Shown here piece by piece: positions 41,038-59,564 of a stretch of DNA of 64,000 nucleotides. The notes below the pieces were generated by a model, which was not told the origin of the DNA, did no database searches, and worked only from the letters and a program-made list of their open reading frames with translations. The position numbers and the translations under genes are program-made. The first letter of the stretch is position 1, and every line of letters begins with the position of its first letter. The stretch is from Dehalococcoidia bacterium (lineage in GTDB: Bacteria > Chloroflexota > Dehalococcoidia > Tepidiformales > Tepidiformaceae), in assembly GCA_007118095.1 (NCBI GenBank), contig SKSF01000102.1, forward strand, positions 531 to 64,530, given 5' to 3'.

Positions 41038-41873
41038 ACAGCGGCCATGAACACGAGCGCGATGAGCGCCGATCCTGCGGCAAACGCGACGAAGAGCCCG
41101 TCGCGGCCGAGCACGCGCGGGGCACGCAGGGCTGCAATGGCGGTCGCGAAACCAGCGGCGGCCATGACGAAGGCGTGTTCGGGGCTGGACGGCAGCACTA
41201 CGAAGACAGCGAGTGACGCGGCGAGACCAAATGTCCCGAAGGCGATGCGTGTGGCCTGTCGTGGCCCCACCCGGTGGGCGGCGCCGCGGACGCTTTCAGA
41301 TTCGGCGGCGATGTCGGGGAGCTGGTTCGCGAAATGGAGCGAAAGGCCGAGGAGAATGCCGAGCGGGACGACCCACCAGAGCATGGGATCCCAGGCGTCG
41401 GCGGCCGTATACGTCCAGACGGGGATGAGGGGGATAGCGACAGCATAGGGGAGCCAGCTCAGCATGGTCCGCTTGAGCGCGGCGTTGTAGATGAGTCCAC
41501 ATGCCAAGCCCAGGATGCCAACGAGCCACGCGAGCAACGGCAGCGGCATGCTGATGACCAGCCCGGCGAAAACGAAAGCGCTTGCCAGGATCGACGCGGT
41601 CCGGCGCTGCACAGCACCGGCGGCCAGCGGCTTCCACGGCTTCTGTTCGCGGTCGAGCTCGGCGTCGCTGATGTCGTTGGTGATGCCGATGGCGAACTGG
41701 TAGCAGAGCATCGTTATGCCAAGCCACGCGGCCAGCACCGAGCGGTCTTCGCCGGCAGCAAGCGCCGCAAGGACGGCTGTGAGGCCCGCGACGAGGAATG
41801 ACGGGAACGGGTGCAGGATGCGTACCGCTGTGAGCGGGCCCCGGTGTGTTTGCGACGCGGTCTGTGAGGACAT
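41034..41873 (-). CDS. UbiA-family prenyltransferase
   Basis: Polytopic membrane protein with NDISDAELD (NDxxDxxxD). Its stop overlaps the DUF885 stop (CTAG). Confidence 0.8.
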   Translation of the reverse strand: MSSQTASQTHRGPLTAVRILHPFPSFLVAGLTAVLAALAAGEDRSVLAAWLGITMLCYQFAIGITNDISDAELDREQKPWKPLAAGAVQRRTASILASAFVFAGLVISMPLPLLAWLVGILGLACGLIYNAALKRTMLSWLPYAVAIPLIPVWTYTAADAWDPMLWWVVPLGILLGLSLHFANQLPDIAAESESVRGAAHRVGPRQATRIAFGTFGLAASLAVFVVLPSSPEHAFVMAAAGFATAIAALRAPRVLGRDGLFVAFAAGSALIALVFMAAV

Positions 41874-41935
41874 GTGACTGTCCGAGTGTAGCTGTTTGCG
41901 CGGCCAACCCCTACCGAACGAGCGCCGACAGGCAT

Positions 41936-43186
41936 ATGCTTGCGCCCGTGAAAGCGGAAATTATTGCCATCGGCACCGAGATCTTGCTCGGGGAGATTAT
42001 CGATACGAACAGCGCGCACATTGCGCAACAGCTCCCGGAGCTTGGAATCGACCTCTATTACAAGACGGTGGTCGGCGATAACCCGAACCGCCTGACGGAG
42101 ACCATTGAGCGAGCATGGGGCCGCTCCGACCTTACCATTGCGACCGGCGGACTCGGGCCTACGGACGACGACCAGACCCGTGAGTCGATCGCGAAGGTGC
42201 TGGGCGAGGAGCTGCACGTCGACCCGGCGCTGGAAGAGCGCGTCCGGAACTTCTTCGCGGCGCGCGGCTATCCGATGCCGGAGTCAAACATCAAGCAGGC
42301 GTGGCTTATTCCGAGCGCTCGGGCGCTCGAAAACCCCCGGGGCACTGCGCCGGGGTGGTGGGTCGAGCGCGATGGCCGCGTGATTGTCTGCATGCCCGGT
42401 GTGCCGCCCGAGATGGAGCACATGTGGGTAAACGAGGTGCGGCCCGAGCTGGAACGCCGATCAGGCGGCGAAGTGCTGGTGACCCGAACGCTGAAGACGC
42501 TGGGGATCGGCGAAGGGACCGTGGACGAGATGGCGCGTCCGGTCTATTCCATGCCTGGCATCGGCATCGGCACGTACGCGCGGCAAGACGGCGTGCACAT
42601 GCGCATCGGAGCGAAGGGCACGACGCGCGAAGAAGCCTGGTCGCGCATCCATCCCGCGGAGGAAGAGCTGCGCAGCATCTTTGGCGCTGCCATCTGGGGC
42701 GCGGACGAAGACACGCTCGAAGCGGCTATCGCCGACATGCTGCACAAGCGGCGGGAGTCGGTCGCGACGATGGAATCGGGCACGGGCGGACTGCTGGCAA
42801 GCACGCTCACGGATGTGCCGGGGGCGACCCAGCACTTTGCGGGCGGTGTCGTCGCCTACCACGCGCAGCAGAAGATCGACGCGGGCGTGCCTGCCGAGGT
42901 CATCACGTCGGAAGGGGTTGTCTCGCCCGAGACGGCGAAGGCGATGGCACGTGCCGCGCGTGAGCGTTTCGGAGCCGAGTACGGCATCGGGACAACTGGC
43001 GTGATGGGCCCCGAACCGATGGAGGGCGTCCCGCCGGGAACGGTGCATATCGGGCTGTCGAGCGCCACAGGCGCTGAACACTCGGTTTCGATGACCTTCA
43101 ACCAGGGTCGGGCCGCGGTGAAGCGCCGGGCGGTAACAACGTCGCTTCTGCTCCTGCGGCGCGCGATGCTCGGGGAACTCGGCTAG
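41936..43186 (+). CDS. cinA: CinA (competence/damage-inducible protein; NMN amidohydrolase PncC domain)
   Basis: AEIIAIGTEILLGEIIDTNSAHIAQQL, TGGLGPTDDDQTRE, C-terminal ESGTGGLL PncC-type domain. Start at the ATG at 41936. Confidence 0.92.
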   Translation: MLAPVKAEIIAIGTEILLGEIIDTNSAHIAQQLPELGIDLYYKTVVGDNPNRLTETIERAWGRSDLTIATGGLGPTDDDQTRESIAKVLGEELHVDPALEERVRNFFAARGYPMPESNIKQAWLIPSARALENPRGTAPGWWVERDGRVIVCMPGVPPEMEHMWVNEVRPELERRSGGEVLVTRTLKTLGIGEGTVDEMARPVYSMPGIGIGTYARQDGVHMRIGAKGTTREEAWSRIHPAEEELRSIFGAAIWGADEDTLEAAIADMLHKRRESVATMESGTGGLLASTLTDVPGATQHFAGGVVAYHAQQKIDAGVPAEVITSEGVVSPETAKAMARAARERFGAEYGIGTTGVMGPEPMEGVPPGTVHIGLSSATGAEHSVSMTFNQGRAAVKRRAVTTSLLLLRRAMLGELG

Positions 43187-49818: not shown

Positions 49819-52287
49819 CTACCCGTTGCGGACCAGGTGCACCGGCTCTTCGCCGTCGCGCTGCCACTTCTTCGCAGGGCTCAGGACGATGGGTTCGAGC
49901 TCGCCGGCGGCGAAGGAGGTTTCGCGCCGCTCCTCGGGTGCGTCTTCGTACGCGGTGAGGCGCTGGCGCGGCGTGCGGCCGATCTCACGGATGATGCGCT
50001 CCATCTCCTGGGGCGGCAGCTCCTGCCCGTGTTGCGTCCCGGCAGCGCGCGTGATGCTTTCGTTCATGAGCGTGCCACCAAGGTCGTTGCACCCGGCCTG
50101 GAGGCAGGCCTTGACCCCGGCTTCGCCCATCTTCACCCACGACACCTGGATATTCGTGATCTGCGGGTGAAGCACCAGACGCGCGACAGCGTGCATGAGC
50201 ACGGCCTCACGGAATGTGGGGCCACGGCGGGCGCGGCCCTTGAGATAGATGGGCGCTTCCATATGGACGAACGGCAGCGGCACGAATTCGGTGAAGCCGC
50301 CCGTGCGTTCCTGGAGGCCACGCAGAGCGAGCAGATGCCGCGCCCAATTCACCGGGCCATCGACATGGCCGTACATGATGGTCGTGGTGGTCTGGAAGCC
50401 GACCGAGTGCGCGGCCTCCATCACTTCGAGCCACTGGGCCGTGTTGATCTTGTCCGGGCAAATCACGGCACGGACTTCGTCGTCGAGTACCTCGGCAGCG
50501 GTACCGGGGAGGGTCCCCAGCCCGGCATCGCGCAATTCGCGCAGATAGTCACGCACGCTCATACCGAGTGTCTCGGCGCCCTGCCACACCTCTAGCGGCG
50601 AGAACGCGTGGACGTGCATGGAAGGCAGCGCCTCCTTCACGGCGGAGACGATTTCCAGGTACTTGTTGCCCGTGTATTCCGGATGAATGCCGCCCTGCAT
50701 GCAGACTTCGGTGCCGCCGCGCTCCCAGGCTTCGCGGGCGCGCCGGAGGATCTCTTCGGTTTCGAGGTCGTAGGGCGTGCCGCGCAGGTTTTCGCTGAGC
50801 TTGCCCTTGCTGAAGGCGCAGAACTGGCACTTGAAGTAGCAAACGTTCGTGTAGTTGATGTTGCGGTTGACGACGTAGCTCACGGTGTCGCCGCAGACCT
50901 CCTGGCGGAGGGCGTCCGCGGCATCGCAAATGTGTTCGAAGTCGGCGCCACGGGCACGGAAGAGCGTTGCGATCTCGGACTCGCCGAGGGACTCGCCACT
51001 GCGAGCGCGGTCGACAATTGTGCGGACCTCCGGGCTCACCGGTTCCGATGCAGCGCGCGGCGCACGGGTGGGGCCGAAGTCGTATCCAGCAGGGACGTCG
51101 ACCACCAGGCCCGGCGACCAGTCTTCCATGCGCGCGAGGCCGTCGGCATCGATGCATTCCAGCACATCCGGCGCGAGTTTCGGGTCTTGCCAGCGGGCGC
51201 TATCGAGCGCGTAGGAGGGGTAGACCGCCAGGCGCTCTGCCAGGTGCTTGCCCGCGTCGGCAGTGCGTTCGCGGAGCTCTTCCAGGTGGGGCCAGGGGGC
51301 TTCCGGGTTCACGTGGTCGGGCGTGACAGGAGACACACCACCCCAGTCGTTGAGCCCGGCGCCCACGATGCGCTGATAGACACCGGGGCTGAGGTTGGGC
51401 GGCGCCTGGATGTTCATCTCGCCGCCGAAGAGCAGCCGGGCGGTGGCGATGGTCCAGAGGAGGTCGTCGAGATCCGGGTCGGGCCAGTTCGCCATCTTCG
51501 TGCCGGGCTTGGCGCGAAAGTTCTGGACGATGATCTCCTGGATGTGACCGTATTGCTCGTGGAGATCGCGGAGCGCGAGCAACGAATCGATGCGCTCGGC
51601 ACGGTTCTCACCGATGCCGATGAGGATGCCGGAGGTGAACGGCACCTGGAGTTCGCCGGCGTGGCGCATGGTTTCGAGCCGGACTTCGGGCTTCTTATCG
51701 GGGGACCCGTGGTGCGCCATCCCCTTGTCGAGGAGCCGCTCGGAGATGTTCTCGAGCATGATCCCCTGGGACACGGAGACCTCGCGCAGGCCAGCTATCT
51801 CGTCCCGGGTCATCACGCCGGGGTTGGCATGGGGCAGGAGGCCGGTTTCTTCGTGGACGAGGCGCGACATGGCGACCAGGTATTCGATGGTGGTCGAATA
51901 GCCGAGCGCGTCAAGCTCCTCACGGGCCACTTTGTACCGCTGCTCGGGCTTGTCGCCGAGTGTGAAGAGCGCTTCGCGGCATCCCTGTGCCGCGCCCTGC
52001 CGGGCGATTTCGAGCACTTCGTCCGGCGTGAGGTAGGCTCGTTCGCCGGGTTTCGGGGGCTGGGCGAAGGTGCAGTAGTGGCACACGTCGCGGCAGAGGT
52101 GCGTCAGCGGGATGAAGACCTTGCGCGAATAGGTGATGACCTTCCCGTGGGCTTCGTCCCGAAGTGGCGCGGCGGCATGCATGAGCCCGTCGAGGTCGTG
52201 ATGGTCGGCAAGCGCATGTGCTTCGTCCGCAGAGAGCCGGGCGCCACGGCGGGCGCGTTCGATGATGTTGTCAGTTGCTGGAGCCAT
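49819..52287 (-). CDS. fbiC: Bifunctional FO synthase (7,8-didemethyl-8-hydroxy-5-deazariboflavin synthase), CofG+CofH fusion
   Basis: 822 aa with two radical-SAM CxxxCxxC sites (CRDVCHYCTF and CYFKCQFCAF). Typical FbiC length and order. Confidence 0.93.
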   Translation of the reverse strand: MAPATDNIIERARRGARLSADEAHALADHHDLDGLMHAAAPLRDEAHGKVITYSRKVFIPLTHLCRDVCHYCTFAQPPKPGERAYLTPDEVLEIARQGAAQGCREALFTLGDKPEQRYKVAREELDALGYSTTIEYLVAMSRLVHEETGLLPHANPGVMTRDEIAGLREVSVSQGIMLENISERLLDKGMAHHGSPDKKPEVRLETMRHAGELQVPFTSGILIGIGENRAERIDSLLALRDLHEQYGHIQEIIVQNFRAKPGTKMANWPDPDLDDLLWTIATARLLFGGEMNIQAPPNLSPGVYQRIVGAGLNDWGGVSPVTPDHVNPEAPWPHLEELRERTADAGKHLAERLAVYPSYALDSARWQDPKLAPDVLECIDADGLARMEDWSPGLVVDVPAGYDFGPTRAPRAASEPVSPEVRTIVDRARSGESLGESEIATLFRARGADFEHICDAADALRQEVCGDTVSYVVNRNINYTNVCYFKCQFCAFSKGKLSENLRGTPYDLETEEILRRAREAWERGGTEVCMQGGIHPEYTGNKYLEIVSAVKEALPSMHVHAFSPLEVWQGAETLGMSVRDYLRELRDAGLGTLPGTAAEVLDDEVRAVICPDKINTAQWLEVMEAAHSVGFQTTTTIMYGHVDGPVNWARHLLALRGLQERTGGFTEFVPLPFVHMEAPIYLKGRARRGPTFREAVLMHAVARLVLHPQITNIQVSWVKMGEAGVKACLQAGCNDLGGTLMNESITRAAGTQHGQELPPQEMERIIREIGRTPRQRLTAYEDAPEERRETSFAAGELEPIVLSPAKKWQRDGEEPVHLVRNG

Positions 52288-52382: not shown

Positions 52383-52850
52383 ATGGCAGCAACAACACGA
52401 GCTTCGCGCACAGCGCTTGACCGGCAGGTCCGGTGCCCGGTGGCGACAGCCCTCGACGTGGTGGGCGACCGGTGGACCTTGCTTATCGTCCGCGATTTGC
52501 TGCGAGGCATGACACGGTTCAGCCAGCTCCGGCAGTCGGTCGAAGGCGTGACGACAAGCCTGCTGTCGGACCGCCTGAAGCTGTTGGAGCGGGAAGGCAT
52601 CATCGAACGGCGCTTCTACAGTGACCATCCGCCGCGAGCCGAATACATCCTGACGCCGAAAGGCCACGGGCTGGGCGTCATTGTGGGCGCACTATCGACC
52701 TGGGGACAGCAGCACGCGGAACATGACCTGTCGCTCATCGACAAGGAGTGCGGTCACCCGGTGCGCGTGACCTATGAGTGCGATACATGCGAGCGGCCAG
52801 TGCCACGGTCGCGCATTCGCATCGTCGAATCGGCGGACCCGTCCGGCTGA
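52383..52850 (+). CDS. HxlR-family (winged-helix) transcriptional regulator
   Basis: CPVATALDVVGDRWTLLIVRDLLRGMTRFSQL..LLSDRLKLLEREGIIERR is the classic HxlR signature. A C-terminal CGH..C..C cluster is also present. The start at 52383 is chosen, not proven. Confidence 0.88.
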   Translation: MAATTRASRTALDRQVRCPVATALDVVGDRWTLLIVRDLLRGMTRFSQLRQSVEGVTTSLLSDRLKLLEREGIIERRFYSDHPPRAEYILTPKGHGLGVIVGALSTWGQQHAEHDLSLIDKECGHPVRVTYECDTCERPVPRSRIRIVESADPSG

Positions 52851-53555: not shown

Positions 53556-54425
53556 TTGTCAGAGACGTCAACGCGACAAGAAGCCACGATCTGGCAGGCC
53601 GAGGAATATTCGGTCACGGAGGAGCCCTATTACCTCCCGATCGGCGACGAGATTCCCCTCTTCGAGGCGGCCTATGAGCAACGCATCCCGGTGCTCCTGA
53701 AAGGGCCGACGGGGTGCGGGAAGACCCGCTTCGTCGAGTACATGGCGCACCGGCTGGGCAAGCCGATGAACGGCGCGGGCGACAACGCACCGCGCCCGCT
53801 GATTACGGTGGCCTGCCACGAGGACCTGACGGCCAGCGACCTGGTCGGCCGCTACTTGCTAGATGCCGAGGGCACGCGCTGGATCGACGGCCCGCTCACG
53901 CGCTCGGTGAAGGTGGGCGCGATCTGCTACCTGGACGAGGTGGTGGAAGCGCGGAAGGACACCACGGTGCTCATCCACCCGCTGACGGACTACCGGCGCT
54001 TGCTGCCTGTTGAGAAACAGGGGCAGGTAGTGGAGGCCGCCGACGGGTTCCTGCTGGTGATTTCGTATAACCCGGGCTACCAGAGCGCGCTGAAGGACCT
54101 GAAACATTCGACGCGGCAGCGGTTCATCTCAATCGAGTTCGACTACCCGCCGCGCGAGCACGAGATGGAGATTATCCAGCACGAGGCCGCTATCGACGCC
54201 GGGCTCGCTGGCGACCTCGCGAAGCTGGGCGAGAAGGTGCGAAACCTCCGGGAGCACGGCCTCGGCGAGGGCGTGAGTACGCGCCTGCTGATCTATGCGG
54301 GCAAGTTGATGGCGAAGGGCATCTCGCCGCGCCGCGCATGCCAGGTGGCTGTGACCTGGTCGCTCACGGACGACCACGAGGTACAGCGAAGCATCGAGGA
54401 GGTCGTAACCTCGATCTTCGAGTAA
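53556..54425 (+). CDS. CbbQ/NirQ/NorQ/GvpN-type (AAA_5, MoxR-class) AAA+ ATPase
   Basis: Walker [12 protein letters not shown], Walker B AICYLDEV, sensor region [24 protein letters not shown]. 289 aa, the typical size of the Q-type activases. Confidence 0.88.
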
Positions 54426-54428
54426 ACG

Positions 54429-55046
54429 ATGCGCGCAGGAATCGTCTCGGACATCCACTGCAACATCGGCGGACTGGAAGGTGCGCTCGAAGTCATGGGC
54501 GACATCGACGCCCTCTTCTGTGCGGGCGATTCGGTGTTCCAGTTCCGCTGGTCGAACGAGGTGATCGAGCGGCTGCGAGACCTCGGCGCCTATGTGATCC
54601 TCGGGAACCACGAAGAGATCCTGCTGGGCCCGGACGGCAAGCGGGCGCTTTCGTCGCCCAAGGTACGGCAGGACCTGGTGGAGTGGCTGCGAGAGCAGCC
54701 CTACAGCATGGACGTCGAGTTCGACGGCAAGCTGGTCCACATGACGCATTCGTCACCATGGGAGCCGTGGCGCGACTATCACTACCCGCACGAGGCTATC
54801 TGGCAACGGGCGGCCGAACTCGAATGCGATACGCTGATCGTGGGCCACACGCATTTCCAGATGGCGGACCGATTCGGCTCGACACTGGTCATCAATCCTG
54901 GTTCGGCGGGGGACCCGCGGGACCACCGGAACGAGTTCGCGCTTTCGTGCGCGGTGTGGGACACGACGGACGATTCCGTGACGTTCTACGATTACCCGGA
55001 TCCGACCCGGAACTTCCGGAGCCATTCCGGGCAGCTCACAGGCTGA
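54429..55046 (+). CDS. Calcineurin-like metallophosphoesterase (YfcE / MJ0936-type)
   Basis: Motifs in order: SDIHCN (DxH), CAGD (GD), LGNHEE (GNHE), MTH, VGHTH (GHxH), INPGS. Confidence 0.88.
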   Translation: MRAGIVSDIHCNIGGLEGALEVMGDIDALFCAGDSVFQFRWSNEVIERLRDLGAYVILGNHEEILLGPDGKRALSSPKVRQDLVEWLREQPYSMDVEFDGKLVHMTHSSPWEPWRDYHYPHEAIWQRAAELECDTLIVGHTHFQMADRFGSTLVINPGSAGDPRDHRNEFALSCAVWDTTDDSVTFYDYPDPTRNFRSHSGQLTG

Positions 55047-55092
55047 GATATGTGCGGGACAGCCGGGACTCCCGGCCAGGAAGCGAGGGCGC

Positions 55093-58000
55093 ATGAGCAT
55101 CGCCGGCGAATTACTAGCACGACACCGTGACCGGCTCGCGGGCTTCCCGGGGCCACTGACCGAACACTTCGAAGCGGGGCTGAAGGCGCTTTCACCACGG
55201 TTCAGCCCGACCCAGCTGCAGCAGTGGGCCGAGACGGGCGTGGAGCTCACGGCCCTGAACCTGCGCTCGTGGGAAGCGGCGGCCGAGTACTTCAAGGCGG
55301 GGCCGGAATTTGACCCGGCGACGCCGTGGTCGGCCATCGAACACCTGGGAAATGAAGCCATGTCAATGGCGGGCGACTCGACACCGCTGGCCATCTCGTT
55401 CGTCCGCTCGGCGCCAGCGACGCTCCGGATGATCGGCCCAGACCATGTCCGGCAGTGGGCTGACCTCGGACGGCGACTCTACAAGGGCAACTGGAAGAGC
55501 TCGGCGCTCGCCGCGCAGTTCTATGACCTGAGCCCCGATCTTTTCGGCGTGCTCCGCCTCAGCCAGGCGTCCCGGCTCGCGGTCTTTGTCGACGAGCTTT
55601 CGCGGCACAGCTACGAGCTGGCTTCGGCCTGCCTGACGGCCGCGCCGCAGGTGCTCAGTGACCTGGAGCCGGACGACCGGCTCCCGTTCATCACCTACGC
55701 CGTGGAGCTTGCGCAGTCGAGCTGGGCCGATTCACGGCTGTACTTCGAGCGCGGCACGCCGCTGGTACACAAGGTGCACCAGCCGTTGCGCGAACGGTTC
55801 CTTCTCCTGGCGGCGCAGGTGGCGCGCGGGCACAACCGGAGCGCATTCCAGTACCTGGAAGAAGCGGCGAACTCGATGGCCCAGCTCGACCCGGCGACGC
55901 ACCACCGCGTGGTGGAGATGAGCGAGAAGCTCGCGGTCTACTCTCCCTACGCGGCAATGGACTTCATCATCAACACGCCGACAGTGCTCGAGGTGGTACG
56001 GCTCGATGAGCTGGACCCGTGGCACGAGGGAGGCCTGCAGATCCTGAAGTCGAGCCGGGATGGCGGCGAGGCATATTTCCGCCTGCAGTCGACGCGCGGC
56101 GAGGACGTGCTCGAGAACCTTTCCGCCCGGGTCGAATTGACCAGGGTGGGCGAAGTGCTGCGCATGTACTGCAAGGCACTGACGGGGCGCGATGTCCACG
56201 TCCACGCGACAGCCCAGCTCGCCGAGAAGGGCATTGGCTGGTCGGATGAGCAGCGCGCGAGCACGGAAGGCACGACCATCTATCTCCCGGAGATGATGGA
56301 GCGCTACCACGACAAAGACGAAAATTTCGCGGCATTCAAGGTCTTTGCGACGCACCAGGCCGGGCGCCTGGAGTTCGGCAGTTTCGATTTTGACTTCGAC
56401 CGGCCGGCGGTGGTGCTCGAACGGCAACGGCCTGCGCGGGAGGAGACAAGCAGCGGCTTCGTAACGGACATGGAGCGGTTCTTCGACCTCATGCCGAACC
56501 GGAAGCTTGCGTCGGACCTGTTCACCATTACGGAAGACACGCGGATTGACGCGTCCGTAAAGCGCGAATATGGGGGCATCCGCAAGCCCCTCTACCGGAT
56601 GCAGGAGGAAGAACTGGAACGGCGTCCCTCGCCGCGCCAGATGCCGTTGCGCGATGCATTCGTCGAAAACATGGTGCGTGTGAGCCTTGGCGGATCCGAC
56701 TTCATCGAGTGGCCGATGGAGCACAGCCAGCCGATGGCGCTGGCGCTCGGGATCATGGAGCTGATGCTGCGGCCGGAGGCAACAGTCGAGGACGCGGCAG
56801 AGGCGACGATGCGCCTGTACACGCTGGCGTCGTCGATCCCGAACGTCGCGACACAGGAGCTCGCCGAGGGCGAATGGGGCAACGTTGAGCCGATGGAGAG
56901 CAGCGGCCAGGCGATGCCGATGGAAGGCGGCGAGATGGGCGGCGAAGGCGGCCAGCCGCAGTTCGGCGATGTGGGCGAAGGTGAGGGCCAGGAAGGCGAG
57001 GAAGGCGAAGCCGACTACAGCAGCCCTGAACCGGTCGACTTCCGCGGTGACTTCAAGCCAGAGCTGGTGCAGCTCCTGATGAAGCTGCGGGACGGCGCTG
57101 AGGGCGGCGACGCAGGTGAGATGTCGCCGGCGGATCTGACACCGGAACAGCTCGCGGAGCTGATGGAGAAGAGCGCCGAAATCGACCTCGATTCGCTCAT
57201 GGAAGGCGACATCGACAGCAGCTCGGGAATGTTCCTTTCGAACCTGATGAAAGAGGCTGGCACGCCGGCCTCCGAGAAGGACCATGAAAAGGGCGAGGGC
57301 GAGCCGACCAGCGACAGCAGCACGGGCGAGGGAGAAGGCGAAGAGCCGCTGCAGCCCATCGTCACGGTGTATTACTACGACGAGTGGGACTTCCGCGCGC
57401 AGGACTACAAACCACGCTGGTGCGCCGTGAAGGAGTCGAAGCTGCAGGCGGGTGAGGAGAACTTCTACGAAAACACGCTCCGGGAGCATGCCGGCCTCGT
57501 CCAGCAGACGCGCAAGCAGTTCGAGCTCCTGAAGCCCGAAATGTTCCGGAAGATCAAGCGGCTGCCAGACGGTGAGGACATCGACCTTGACCAGGCCATC
57601 GAGTGGATGGTGGAGCACAAGGCGGGCGTGAACCCGAACGAAAAGCTGTACTGGCGGCGGAACAAGGTCGAGCGGGATGTCGCAGTCGCATTCCTCATCG
57701 ATATGTCGGCGAGTACGGATGAAGAGATCAACAAGCGCGACCGGCAGCAGGACGACGGGGATTATGACGACGATCCGCGGAAGTACCTGAGCTGGTGGGT
57801 TTCGAAGCGCCGGCAGGAGCTCGCAACGCCGCCGAAGCGCATCATCGACCTCGAAAAGGAGTCGGCGGTGCTGTTGATGACGGCGCTGGAGACCATCGGC
57901 GACCAGTACGGCATCTACGGGTTTAGCGGATACGGGCGTGACAATGTCGAGTTCTTTGTGATCAAGGATTTCGACGAGCGGCTGGACCAGCCAATCAAGC

Positions 58001-58362
58001 AGCGGCTGGATAACATCACGCCTATTCGTTCGACACGTATGGGCCCGGCGCTGCGTCACGCGACCCACAAGCTCAACTTGACCGAAGCGAAGGTGAAGAT
58101 CCTGGTGCTGTTGAGCGACGGGCGGCCGCAGGACCACGGTTATGGGCGAGACCGAACAGAGAAAGAGTACGCGATCCACGACACGAAGCAGGCACTCAAC
58201 GAGGCCAAGCGCGACGGGATCACACCCTTTGCCCTGACGGTCGACCGTGCGGGCCATGACTACCTGAAGACCATGTGCGAAGACATGGGGTATGAGGTGG
58301 TCGCGGACATCGAGGCGCTGCCGAGCCGCCTGCCAACGCTGTATCGACGCCTCACCGAGTAA
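55093..58362 (+). CDS. Giant CbbO/NorD-like protein: N-terminal helical repeats, NorD/CbbO-like core, acidic low-complexity linker, C-terminal VWA domain with MIDAS
   Basis: 1089 aa. The TIYLPEMMERY..FKVFATHQAGRLEFGSFDF block resembles NorD/CbbO. E/G/D-rich stretch at about 56880..57370. VWA with MIDAS DMSAS (57700..57714) and LLSDGRPQD. Confidence 0.85.
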   Translation: MSIAGELLARHRDRLAGFPGPLTEHFEAGLKALSPRFSPTQLQQWAETGVELTALNLRSWEAAAEYFKAGPEFDPATPWSAIEHLGNEAMSMAGDSTPLAISFVRSAPATLRMIGPDHVRQWADLGRRLYKGNWKSSALAAQFYDLSPDLFGVLRLSQASRLAVFVDELSRHSYELASACLTAAPQVLSDLEPDDRLPFITYAVELAQSSWADSRLYFERGTPLVHKVHQPLRERFLLLAAQVARGHNRSAFQYLEEAANSMAQLDPATHHRVVEMSEKLAVYSPYAAMDFIINTPTVLEVVRLDELDPWHEGGLQILKSSRDGGEAYFRLQSTRGEDVLENLSARVELTRVGEVLRMYCKALTGRDVHVHATAQLAEKGIGWSDEQRASTEGTTIYLPEMMERYHDKDENFAAFKVFATHQAGRLEFGSFDFDFDRPAVVLERQRPAREETSSGFVTDMERFFDLMPNRKLASDLFTITEDTRIDASVKREYGGIRKPLYRMQEEELERRPSPRQMPLRDAFVENMVRVSLGGSDFIEWPMEHSQPMALALGIMELMLRPEATVEDAAEATMRLYTLASSIPNVATQELAEGEWGNVEPMESSGQAMPMEGGEMGGEGGQPQFGDVGEGEGQEGEEGEADYSSPEPVDFRGDFKPELVQLLMKLRDGAEGGDAGEMSPADLTPEQLAELMEKSAEIDLDSLMEGDIDSSSGMFLSNLMKEAGTPASEKDHEKGEGEPTSDSSTGEGEGEEPLQPIVTVYYYDEWDFRAQDYKPRWCAVKESKLQAGEENFYENTLREHAGLVQQTRKQFELLKPEMFRKIKRLPDGEDIDLDQAIEWMVEHKAGVNPNEKLYWRRNKVERDVAVAFLIDMSASTDEEINKRDRQQDDGDYDDDPRKYLSWWVSKRRQELATPPKRIIDLEKESAVLLMTALETIGDQYGIYGFSGYGRDNVEFFVIKDFDERLDQPIKQRLDNITPIRSTRMGPALRHATHKLNLTEAKVKILVLLSDGRPQDHGYGRDRTEKEYAIHDTKQALNEAKRDGITPFALTVDRAGHDYLKTMCEDMGYEVVADIEALPSRLPTLYRRLTE

Positions 58363-58369
58363 CCGGGCG

Positions 58370-58699
58370 ATGGCGGCCTTCCCTTGCCCGGCGCTGGGGA
58401 CGACTGTCGCCCTGGACGATGAACGCGAACGTACGGTGCTGACGTGGCACCCGGAGTTTGACGGGCGTCTGCACACGCTCGCGGGCGCGACCATCACAGA
58501 TCCGGATTTGGTCGACCAGCGGGCTGACCGCCCGGAGATCGGGCTGGTACGTTTCTGGCCGGATTTCCGGGACGGGTGCTTCGTCTGTGTCGTCGTCCGC
58601 GCGGACCGGGTGCCAGGGTTGGCCGGGTACCGCTACTGGGTGGTGACGGTGTACGCGTCCCAAAAGGTGGACACGTGGAAGAGCATGTGGGAACGCTGA
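58370..58699 (+). CDS. 109-aa hypothetical protein, toxin-like position in a two-gene overlapping pair
   Basis: The ATG at 58370 lies 7 nt after the VWA gene stop. It ends ..GYRYWVVTVYASQKV.., weakly reminiscent of DUF4258-type toxins that pair with DUF2283. The family assignment is not secure. Confidence 0.5.
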   Translation: MAAFPCPALGTTVALDDERERTVLTWHPEFDGRLHTLAGATITDPDLVDQRADRPEIGLVRFWPDFRDGCFVCVVVRADRVPGLAGYRYWVVTVYASQKVDTWKSMWER

Positions 58700-58920
58700 T
58701 GATGGCGTACGATCGGGACGGCGACGTGCTCTGGCTCTGTACAGCACCACCATATCCGGCCCAGCTATCGGAAGAAATTGATGACGGCGTGATTGCTCGC
58801 AAGCATCCGCACTCCGGCGATATCGAGGGGATGGAAATCCTGTTCTTCGGGAACCGCTTCGCGGATGGCTGGGAATTGCGCGTGCCGATGCCTGTCAGGC
58901 GCACGGGGACAGGAGCGTAG
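58699..58920 (+). CDS. DUF2283-family protein (antitoxin-like)
   Basis: MMAYDRDGDVLWLCTA....SEEIDDGVIARKHPHSGDIEGMEILFFGNR follows the DUF2283 pattern (YD.e.D.Lyi.l...e....vi.d.d..G.ivGiEil). The start overlaps the upstream stop (TGATG). Confidence 0.65.
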   Translation: MMAYDRDGDVLWLCTAPPYPAQLSEEIDDGVIARKHPHSGDIEGMEILFFGNRFADGWELRVPMPVRRTGTGA

Positions 58921-58922
58921 CC

Positions 58923-59564
58923 ATGCCTATTCTGCTCATCCGGCACGGCGAGTCCGAAGGCAACGCGAGCGGCGTCATCCAGGGCCGGCTCGACGTCGGG
59001 CTGACCGCACTGGGGCGCCAGCAGGCGGGCCAGACGGCCGAGGCGCTCGCGTACGCGGAACCGCCCATCGAGGGGGTCGTTTCAAGCGTCCTCCAGCGGG
59101 CGAGGATGACCGCGGACATCATCGCGGAACGCCTTGGGATTCCAGTCGAGCTGGACGAGGACCTTGTGGAATACGACCACGGGGAGCTGAGCGGGCTGAC
59201 ACGGCAACAGATCGGAGAGCGGTTCCCGCATCTCTCGCAGTCTGGCATCGCGGTCACGCGCGATGGGACCTGGCCATCTATACCCGGCGAAGAGGGGCGC
59301 GACGTCCTGTTCGCCCGGGCACAGCGCGCGCTTGAACGGCTGCAGGCGGACGGGCGGAACGTGGCCGTGGTGACACACGGGGGTTTCATCAACGCGGCAT
59401 GCCATGCGGTGCTGGGCCTGGATTACGTCAACAAGCCACAGGGGTTCCGCTCGGGAAACGCCGGTGTCAGCGAAATCCGCCTGGACCGCCAGGGACGGCC
59501 GATCCTGCACCGACACAACGATGCCTGCCACTTGAAGATCCGGACGCAACCGCTCGAAGCCTAA
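58923..59564 (+). CDS. Histidine phosphatase family protein (phosphoglycerate mutase-like)
   Basis: LLIRHGESEGN (RHG catalytic motif), downstream E and THGG. Confidence 0.88.
   Translation: MPILLIRHGESEGNASGVIQGRLDVGLTALGRQQAGQTAEALAYAEPPIEGVVSSVLQRARMTADIIAERLGIPVELDEDLVEYDHGELSGLTRQQIGERFPHLSQSGIAVTRDGTWPSIPGEEGRDVLFARAQRALERLQADGRNVAVVTHGGFINAACHAVLGLDYVNKPQGFRSGNAGVSEIRLDRQGRPILHRHNDACHLKIRTQPLEA

Follow-up and report, generated by a model that had tools for sequence, protein, structure and literature searches.

To our knowledge, the AAA+ motors of the CbbQ/NorQ type and the adaptors paired with them, which carry a VWA domain with a MIDAS (an adhesion site that depends on metal ions), have only two firmly established clients, Rubisco and cNOR. 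The chelatase pairs CobS-CobT and BchI-BchD are also built from an AAA+ motor and a VWA/MIDAS partner, with an acidic linker between the N-domain and the VWA domain of the latter. For both established clients, the N-terminal region of the adaptor is thought to set specificity (PMC9976466). Here we analyzed a stretch of 64,000 nucleotides (nt) from a Dehalococcoidia bacterium (contig SKSF01000102.1, positions 531 to 64,530 of the forward strand; hereafter, the window), in which an earlier inspection of the letters alone (the sequence-only reading) had noticed three co-directional open reading frames (ORFs) encoding a CbbQ/NorQ-type ATPase of 289 aa (Q), a metallophosphoesterase of 205 aa (MPE) and a giant VWA protein of 1089 aa (O). 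Their coordinates, sizes and gaps (3 nt between Q and MPE, 46 nt between MPE and O) proved exact, and all quoted motifs of the three proteins were found in the translations and are conserved across orthologues. A fourth gene, coaE for dephospho-coenzyme A (CoA) kinase, lies 6 nt upstream of Q, belongs to the unit and had been overlooked; with it, the cassette makes up an operon of four genes, coaE-Q-MPE-O, of which it is the core. We propose, with a probability of about one half, that this operon represents a distinct, Chloroflexota-wide lineage of ATP-driven remodellers of the CbbQO/NorQD class, linked to CoA or nucleotide-cofactor metabolism. The adaptor modules and the gene context are what is new here, our literature search having found no paper that links CoaE or CoA pyrophosphatase to MoxR/CbbQ systems; the machine class is already known.

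The lineage is considered distinct because the Qs linked to long O proteins are monophyletic and share an insert close to Walker A, and because the N-terminal 750 residues of O match nothing in Pfam, NCBIfam or the PDB. The link to CoA was drawn because the adjacency of CoaE persists while the flanks vary and recurs in rearranged gene orders, and because a NUDIX protein that takes the place of MPE in sister clades is NudL-like. From this gene context we infer that the process concerns CoA or a CoA-like nucleotide ligand.

That the pair consists of a CbbQ/NorQ-type motor and a VWA/MIDAS adaptor, as first read, was agreed on by profile searches, PDB matches and alignment with NorD. Q comprises an AAA_5 domain (1e-30) followed by CbbQ_C (1e-28), with Walker A GPTGCGKT at residues 50-57 (nt 53703-53726), Walker B ICYLDE (within ICYLDEV) and a helix-2-insert motif of the GRxLLxxxxT type, a 10-residue stretch, and these motifs are conserved in 73 orthologues. 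Q thereby carries the full motif set of a CbbQ/NorQ motor. Its closest solved relative is CbbQ (PDB 5c3c, 1.8e-104, 352 bits), followed by NorQ (9qh4, 7e-92); the identities are 59% and 57% to the solved CbbQs (5c3c, 6l1q) and 57% to the solved NorQs (9qh4-9qhg), with which Q shares the same motor architecture including the helix-2 insert. Q nevertheless differs from NorQ by forming a separate clade and by an extra insert. The insertion at residues 70-80 is missing from four solved CbbQ/NorQ proteins, and all long-O-linked Qs have a variable insert of 11-25 aa after the Walker-A helix. Shorter inserts at the same position were observed in several other Q-O subfamilies. In a neighbour-joining tree with four labelled references, all long-O-linked Qs formed one clade apart from NorQ and other Q-O subfamilies; this clade was sister to the two CbbQ references together with a Q from a Miltoncostaea plasmid, not inside them, and both NorQ references grouped away from it, a placement that is indicative only since the tree carries no support values.

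The adaptor was then compared with NorD in the same manner. O residues 752-1087 align with NorD 341-646 (7e-35), reaching the very C-terminus, and the only Pfam domain in O is VWA (residues 932-1066). The MIDAS is formed by D870-x-S872-x-S874, T981 and D1009 (motifs DMSAS and SDG), and O ends with the conserved tail LPSRLPTLYRRLTE; across 25 diverse homologues, the residues of the MIDAS and of the tail vary little or not at all. In the NorQD cryo-EM structures, docking takes place through the finger, the tail and the helix-2 insert (GRxLL/IxxxxT); the finger is defined as PdNorD 403-448, to which O ~815-862 is the equivalent region, and the tail is essential for NorQ binding (PMC13036017). Sequence comparison thus shows that O keeps all three NorD elements for motor docking: a predicted finger for the pore, a MIDAS of the DxSxS-T-D form and the tail at the C-terminus. 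NorD and O are also laid out alike, as an N-domain, a disordered linker and a VWA domain, and the acidic linker of O matches by position the disordered NorD linker that is functionally essential (PMC13036017). O differs by the strong acidity of its linker, which contains an RGDF island, and by an extra, family-variable insert after the MIDAS DxSxS (residues ~876-915).

The remaining two thirds of the adaptor are family-specific. The sequence-only reading had described a NorD/CbbO-like core, which stands for the finger, VWA and C-tail (O ~755-1089) and does not for the rest, consisting of a solenoid, an α/β domain and the acidic linker. No Pfam or NCBIfam model matches O residues 1-750, and the same region compared with NorD entries gave no match by phmmer, profile or Foldseek, so that O does not show a NorD-type N-terminal domain. 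Structure prediction and fold searching of O 1-600, as had been suggested, produced confident models without specific structural neighbours: residues 1-600 retrieved from the PDB only generic designed or natural helical repeat proteins, and Foldseek of residues 338-600 reached at best E 0.7, with a profile search against the PDB empty. Within the α/β domain, H421-Q422, E481, R484 and D486 are invariant across phyla. The motifs THQxxHxE and EDxRxD of O had raised a degenerate zincin metallopeptidase as a candidate, which was rejected given the confident 338-600 model without a PDB neighbour and the empty profile search.

As the sequence-only reading had supposed, O is several hundred residues longer than its described counterparts (1089 aa versus 638-683 aa for NorD and ~770 aa for CbbO). 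The solved NorDs have 638-646 aa and the NorD of a canonical operon 683 aa, making O ~400-450 residues longer. CbbO has ~770 aa, a perfect MIDAS and a ~550-residue region before the VWA domain that is poorly conserved even among CbbOs (PMC4660213). A deltaproteobacterial relative of 754 aa is collinear with O 338-1088 at 37% identity, and the alignment begins only at residue 338, which indicates that the extra length is a solenoid added to a CbbO-sized body. Accordingly, the body of O (338-1089) is about the size of CbbO, and the whole protein, with its additional 335-residue solenoid, is ~320 residues longer.

These comparisons bear directly on whether the operon simply encodes an ordinary activase, NorQD or CbbQO, acting on a cNOR or Rubisco client whose genes lie at another place in the genome. 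Automated annotation names many O homologues 'NorD', Q shares 57-59% of its residues with NorQ and CbbQ, and the finger, VWA and tail of O are NorD-like, all of which would fit such an activase. Against it, Q appears to fall outside both reference clades of the four-reference tree, firm clustering inside them being what the sequence-only reading had taken as a mark of an ordinary activase, and the N-terminal region of O, the part held to set client specificity (PMC9976466), is unrelated to that of NorD. A genuine case also looks different: the control locus L090 has a 683-aa relative inside a textbook norC-norB-norQ-norD operon, and on the O profile this canonical NorD reaches 275 bits, whereas family members exceed 1100; annotated plasmid NorDs match O ~755-1088 only. 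Neither norC nor norB was found beside long O, whether in the window or among the loci annotated by Pfam; a regular expression for NorB motifs run over ~160 loci was uninformative, as it missed the known COX1 of L090, and solid negatives are thus limited to the Pfam-annotated loci. For Rubisco, the window has no RbcL Pfam match and a crude motif screen of ~160 loci was negative. The hosts differ from those of CbbQ-CbbO, the Rubisco activase of chemoautotrophs, as well, long O being found in Dehalococcoidia (Tepidiformaceae-type and SAR202), and the genome paper of a Tepidiforma isolate makes no mention of Rubisco, the Calvin cycle, nitric oxide reductase (NOR) or carbon monoxide dehydrogenase (CODH), which is silence and not proof of absence. 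We therefore regard an ordinary activase as very improbable. More generally, the earlier observation that no client gene is present in the window holds for the Pfam-annotated flank and for genes of at least 250 aa supported by GC content at the third codon position (GC3), among which Rubisco, NOR, CODH, gas-vesicle (Gvp) and CobN/BchH genes are all lacking.

A chelatase reading was rejected on similar grounds. Q and O resemble CobS-CobT and BchI-BchD in that an AAA+ motor is joined by a VWA/MIDAS protein containing an acidic linker, whereas Q has CbbQ_C and matches CbbQ/NorQ rather than CobS or BchI, the N-domain of O is not AAA-like, unlike that of BchD, and no CobN/BchH/ChlH-type subunit is encoded in the window.

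The cassette had been called an orphan, which turned out to be misleading, as it belongs to a large conserved family. An exhaustive search (E<1e-3) gave 4269 O representatives clustered at 50% identity, with dozens of homologues aligning across the full ~1000-1130 residues at 30-50% identity; those with organism names are Chloroflexota, SAR202 among them, and public annotation calls them 'NorD' or 'VWA domain-containing'. By BLAST and hidden Markov model (HMM) analysis we examined ~160 related loci from genomes and metagenomes, including a genome sample of 80 loci from 80 species-representative genomes with O identities of 41-73%. In this genome sample, Q and O were both present in 68 loci and Q adjoined O in 68/75, with an insertion between them in L044. 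CoaE was located directly upstream of Q and co-directional in 60 of the 62 loci with enough flank (in six others the flank was too short to judge); one apparent exception, L049, was an ORF-overlap artefact in which CoaE was rescued by HMM. The order CoaE-Q-[slot]-O, with the slot denoting the place that separates Q from O, is maintained to O identities as low as ~41%, and no neighbour outside it is common to all clades, the outer flanks differing by clade. This turnover of the flanks provides a built-in control for synteny that is simply inherited. In the metagenomes, 25 long-form loci had CoaE-Q-[NUDIX, MPE or none]-O, and one contig (L106) had the rearranged order Q-O-CoaE, with CoaE confirmed by Pfam. 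Beyond Chloroflexota few long-form loci were sampled, and the last homology search gave 6 proteins; among these relatives, metagenome-assembled genomes of Nitrospinae/Tectomicrobia encode ~1030-aa O relatives with CoaE immediately downstream, two α/β hydrolases upstream and no adjacent Q. The Q-O family is large and vertically conserved across Dehalococcoidia (Tepidiformaceae-type and SAR202), with relatives in Nitrospinota/Tectomicrobia.

The window CoaE itself is a bona fide dephospho-CoA kinase and a near-universal partner of Q-O: it scores 175 bits on TIGR00152 versus an equivalog cutoff of 65.6, Pfam also calls CoaE, and the P-loop motif GLTGGIxxGK is kept in 65 orthologues. The neighbourhood comparison that the sequence-only reading had proposed gave a split result, in that the phosphoesterase is not always found between Q and O, and the near-constant partner turned out to be CoaE.

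The slot is interchangeable, and the phosphoesterase is thus not the defining feature of the system, contrary to the emphasis first placed on it. It holds a metallophosphoesterase in 23 genome loci (Tepidiformaceae and a ~50% clade), a NUDIX protein of ~200 aa in 27-28 loci (clades at 41-45% O identity) and no gene in 13/68, where O is still conserved. By its sequence, the NUDIX of the slot is homologous to CoA pyrophosphatases of the NudL/NUDT7 type, with NudL, NUDT7 and DR1184 as its closest known counterparts: by far its best NCBIfam match is the NudL CoA pyrophosphatase (2e-30), over the whole profile, and its only solved relatives, D. radiodurans 1nqy (1e-21), human NUDT7 and plant AtNUDT11, are all CoA pyrophosphatases. 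It has an intact NUDIX box and, before it, a conserved R(S/T)x5HxGx3FPGG stretch. With CoaE, two different enzymes of CoA metabolism thus accompany Q-O. In the window, the exact position of this NUDIX is instead filled by the non-homologous MPE, which appears catalytically intact from its motifs: SDIH, CAGD, GNHE and GHTH are all in the translation, and D.H/GD/GNH.E/H/GHTH is kept in 23 orthologues. It matches Metallophos_2 (2e-23, 83 bits versus a cutoff of 27) and is YfcE-like; at 53.9 on TIGR00040 it lies below the cutoff of 56.25 and is therefore assigned only as a member of the superfamily. Metallophosphoesterases and NUDIX enzymes repeatedly interchange on NDP-X substrates, as with ApaH and the Nudix Ap4A hydrolases, LpxH and ADPRibase-Mn, which makes a non-homologous replacement of the slot NUDIX by MPE plausible.

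Small hydrolases of other folds were also observed coupled to O-like proteins of other lineages (L088 6429-7952, L089 3077-4546, L091 44-883, L162 2784-3467). These include two α/β hydrolases, one of them a ~210-aa Peptidase_S15/Hydrolase_4-like type found in 6 loci, and a protein of the metallo-β-lactamase (MBL) fold (Lactamase_B) that overlaps the start of an O-like gene. The combination of a Q/O pair with a small hydrolase may be a general pattern.

Several points weigh against the proposed link to CoA. It is drawn entirely from gene context. The slot NUDIX, at 105 bits, lies under the NudL equivalog cutoff of 134, and one basic residue of its NuCoA motif is acidic. The MPE has no CoA-specific signature, and the solved proteins closest to it are either uncharacterised or of the Ap4A type. 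About 20% of loci have an empty slot, and O is detached in a few (in L032, L033 and L050 among genomes and L102 from a metagenome, the 6-8 kb upstream of long O contain neither Q nor CoaE), which indicates that neither hydrolase is obligatory. The O-CoaE cases outside Chloroflexota are effectively one lineage (74% identical). As to the distinctness of the lineage, the Q tree, with few references and without support values, is a further weakness.

CoaE is a housekeeping protein, and coaE is often found in mixed operons in many bacteria, so that its linkage to Q-O could be co-regulation only. The pair might accordingly be a housekeeping MoxR/VWA remodeller for an unrelated client encoded elsewhere, for instance a respiratory or metallo-enzyme, with the coaE/hydrolase linkage reflecting operon history or co-regulation. 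Such an explanation is in keeping with the purely housekeeping surroundings, the mixed operons of coaE, a slot gene that is dispensable, the occasional detachment of O, and the absence of CoaE from the other Q-O subfamilies that were fetched. It leaves unaccounted for, however, that two independent CoA enzymes, CoaE and CoA pyrophosphatase, occur in one tight cluster, that the adjacency of CoaE outlasts a change of all outer flanks, and that it returns in rearranged orders in other lineages. We consider this explanation unlikely, though it carries the most weight among the rivals.

The other subfamilies referred to are the Q-O pairs scoring lower on the O profile (600-880 bits), which are without CoaE and some of which adjoin xanthine-dehydrogenase/CoxL-type enzymes. 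Three loci with O-like proteins beside such large subunits were noted (L124 2252-4744, L110 10625-12862, L150 83-2458); they represent a different Q-O subfamily, for which a molybdenum-enzyme client is plausible.

Since the variable neighbours of O are mostly metal-dependent hydrolases (MPE, NUDIX, Lactamase_B), a metal-insertion chaperone whose client is the adjacent metallo-hydrolase, be it the dinuclear MPE, a Mg/Mn NUDIX or an MBL-fold enzyme elsewhere, was also considered. NorQD inserts non-haem iron (PMC13036017), and the hydrolase genes are tightly or translationally coupled to O, as seen in an O relative that has a translationally coupled MBL-fold hydrolase upstream. Yet O is conserved in the 13/68 genome loci with an empty slot, some lineages have α/β hydrolase neighbours, which are metal-free enzymes, and CoaE is left unexplained. 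Small MPE and NUDIX enzymes, moreover, normally load their metals by themselves. Metal insertion into the slot hydrolase is hence quite unlikely in our view.

How a CoA-linked remodeller of this class might operate can be outlined from its relatives. Rubisco activase ejects a phosphorylated dead-end ligand, and small hydrolases (CbbY, CA1Pase) destroy the ligand; CA1Pase belongs to the histidine-phosphatase superfamily, as does the product of a gene downstream of O in the window. This is a functional analogy only, with no homology or experimental link. CbbQ-CbbO is alike in concept, its motor freeing a phosphorylated ligand from tight binding. Judged by homology, each hexamer of Q would bind one O (Q6:O1), with the O finger seated in the Q pore and the O MIDAS gripping a carboxylate of the client, while the solenoid and the α/β domain would select that client. 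ATP hydrolysis would then twist and stretch the acidic linker, thereby opening the client, following a remodelling model of motor plus adaptor drawn from PMC4660213, PMC9976466 and PMC13036017. The slot hydrolase, with MPE standing in for NUDIX, would cleave a pyrophosphate or phosphoester bond of a CoA-like ligand, and CoaE would supply or re-make CoA, or be the client itself. The most speculative step, by analogy with Rubisco activase, is that the machine would eject a dead-end CoA-derived ligand from an enzyme, after which the hydrolase would destroy it.

The linker contributes a further element to this outline. The island (Y/F)RG(D/E)FKPE(L/M) is present in ~112/118 long-form O proteins, with P656 invariant. 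Lower-scoring O subfamilies were seen to retain RGx(F/L)xP(E/D)L but to lack the acidic position. Since MIDAS metals are classically bound by the aspartate of an RGD-type motif, the FRGDFKPEL island of O may, speculatively, act as an intramolecular pseudo-ligand of its MIDAS. Taken to its full extent, Q-O would be a 'cofactor-site activase' that uses ATP to remove a dead-end or damaged CoA-type nucleotide from a CoA-dependent enzyme, possibly CoaE, with the slot hydrolase destroying the ligand and the RG(D/E)F island autoinhibiting the adaptor via the MIDAS until the client binds. This elaboration, built on analogy, is doubtful and we would think it unlikely in full.

The coding evidence and the setting of the operon were also inspected. 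Q, MPE and O have GC3 of 0.83-0.87 versus GC2 of 0.42, as in a 65% GC genome, and putative ribosome-binding sites precede Q (GGAGG) and O (GAGGG). A promoter/terminator scan found no terminator-like site between the operon genes, the terminator-like matches being intragenic only, and was otherwise uninformative. Homologue names point to Dehalococcoidia/Tepidiformaceae, phylum Chloroflexota, and outside the operon the window is of a core housekeeping character, with genes for aminoacyl-tRNA synthetases, enzymes of arginine biosynthesis, ClpP, BipA, MutS2 and RarA as well as a fused CofG/H FO synthase. This setting is relevant to a vWA-MoxR type conflict or defence system, which the sequence-only reading had ranked low. 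Pairs of MoxR and vWA proteins are core to conflict systems proposed by comparative genomics (PMC7159879), and the phosphoesterase could be an effector. Nevertheless, PADLOC gave only P-loop-level matches (E 1e-3 or worse), none of them significant; the base composition of the cassette is the same as that of the flanking DNA; the unit is vertically conserved beside essential genes across the whole class; the window shows no effector, sensor or mobile-element neighbours; and Q, conserved at 70-80%, does not show a diversifying pattern. The low ranking was thus upheld, and the defence reading, which we find barely credible, was rejected on the PADLOC result and the vertical housekeeping synteny.

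Table 1. Genes and protein features of the coaE-Q-MPE-O operon and its downstream flank (window coordinates).
Feature	Coordinates	Strand	Basis and remarks
coaE, dephospho-CoA kinase, 205 aa	52932..53549	+	TIGR00152, Pfam CoaE; first gene of the unit
Q, CbbQ/NorQ-type MoxR AAA+ ATPase, 289 aa	53556..54425	+	AAA_5 + CbbQ_C; TTG start
Q insertion, residues 70-80 (11 aa), after Walker-A helix	53763..53795	+	comparison with solved CbbQ/NorQ
MPE, calcineurin-like metallophosphoesterase, 205 aa	54429..55046	+	Metallophos_2; slot gene between Q and O
O, VWA/MIDAS adaptor, 1089 aa	55093..58362	+	Pfam VWA
Helical-hairpin solenoid, O residues 1-335	55093..56097	+	AlphaFold2, ~20 helices, predicted local distance difference test (pLDDT) mostly 90-97
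α/β domain, O residues 338-600	56104..56892	+	AlphaFold2, pLDDT 91, predicted template-modelling score (pTM) 0.89
Acidic low-complexity linker, O residues ~601-755	56893..57357	+	composition scan, net charge to -11 per 40 aa
Island FRGDFKPEL, O residues 650-658, within linker	57040..57066	+	family alignment
Predicted VWA 'finger', O residues ~815-862	57535..57678	+	alignment with NorD 9qhd_G/9qh6_G without large gaps
VWA domain and C-terminal tail, O residues 863-1089	57679..58362	+	Pfam VWA, NorD alignment
His_Phos_1 histidine phosphatase	58923..59564	+	best match CobC-like alpha-ribazole phosphatase, 3e-29, below cutoff

The histidine phosphatase gene is found directly downstream of O in Tepidiformaceae-type loci only. 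Whether it should be counted in the unit is uncertain; with it, the operon of this clade would have a second phosphohydrolase associated. In the window, two small overlapping ORFs intervene between O and the phosphatase, at 58370-58699 (109 aa) and 58675-58920 (81 aa), both on the + strand, the second being weakly DUF2283-like. Most relatives do not have them and pass from O to the phosphatase, which indicates a local insertion; the two ORFs are possibly a toxin-antitoxin-like pair. Upstream, an HxlR-type regulator (52440-52850, +) directly precedes coaE and is divergent to the fused CofG/CofH FO synthase of the F420 pathway (822 aa, 49819-52287, -), an arrangement kept only within Tepidiformaceae-type loci.

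Two further observations concern related loci. In the NUDIX clade, a convergent CinA gene lies just downstream of O (L072 11388-12695 (-) and 27 other loci), encoding MoCF_biosynth, CinA_KH and CinA domains of the nicotinamide mononucleotide (NMN) deamidase/ADP-ribose pyrophosphatase family; in the window, CinA is at 41846-43186 (+), ~12 kb upstream of the cassette, and is another nucleotide-cofactor enzyme nearby. On the Miltoncostaea oceani plasmid NZ_CP064358 (L173 5407-9117), Q precedes an O body that is divided between two genes (363 + 549 aa) and is 40% identical to O 338-1089, and these genes adjoin thiolase, OB-fold (DUF35-like) and AMP-binding acyl-CoA-type genes.

Taken as a family, these operons are best read as a third lineage of CbbQ/NorQ-type motor-adaptor pairs, with N-terminal modules that have no solved or curated relative, and the reproducible gene context of long O points to CoA metabolism. 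Tepidiforma species are in culture, and the NorQD/CbbQO toolkits (Walker-B traps and MIDAS, finger and tail mutants) transfer readily, which makes the system open to direct testing. If the link is functional, the operon would supply the first case of an AAA+ remodeller with a tie to CoA or a nucleotide-cofactor site, and proteins that hundreds of genomes now list under the mistaken name 'NorD' would gain a function. If a cofactor-site activase were indeed at work, the repair principle of Rubisco activase would be extended to a universal cofactor.

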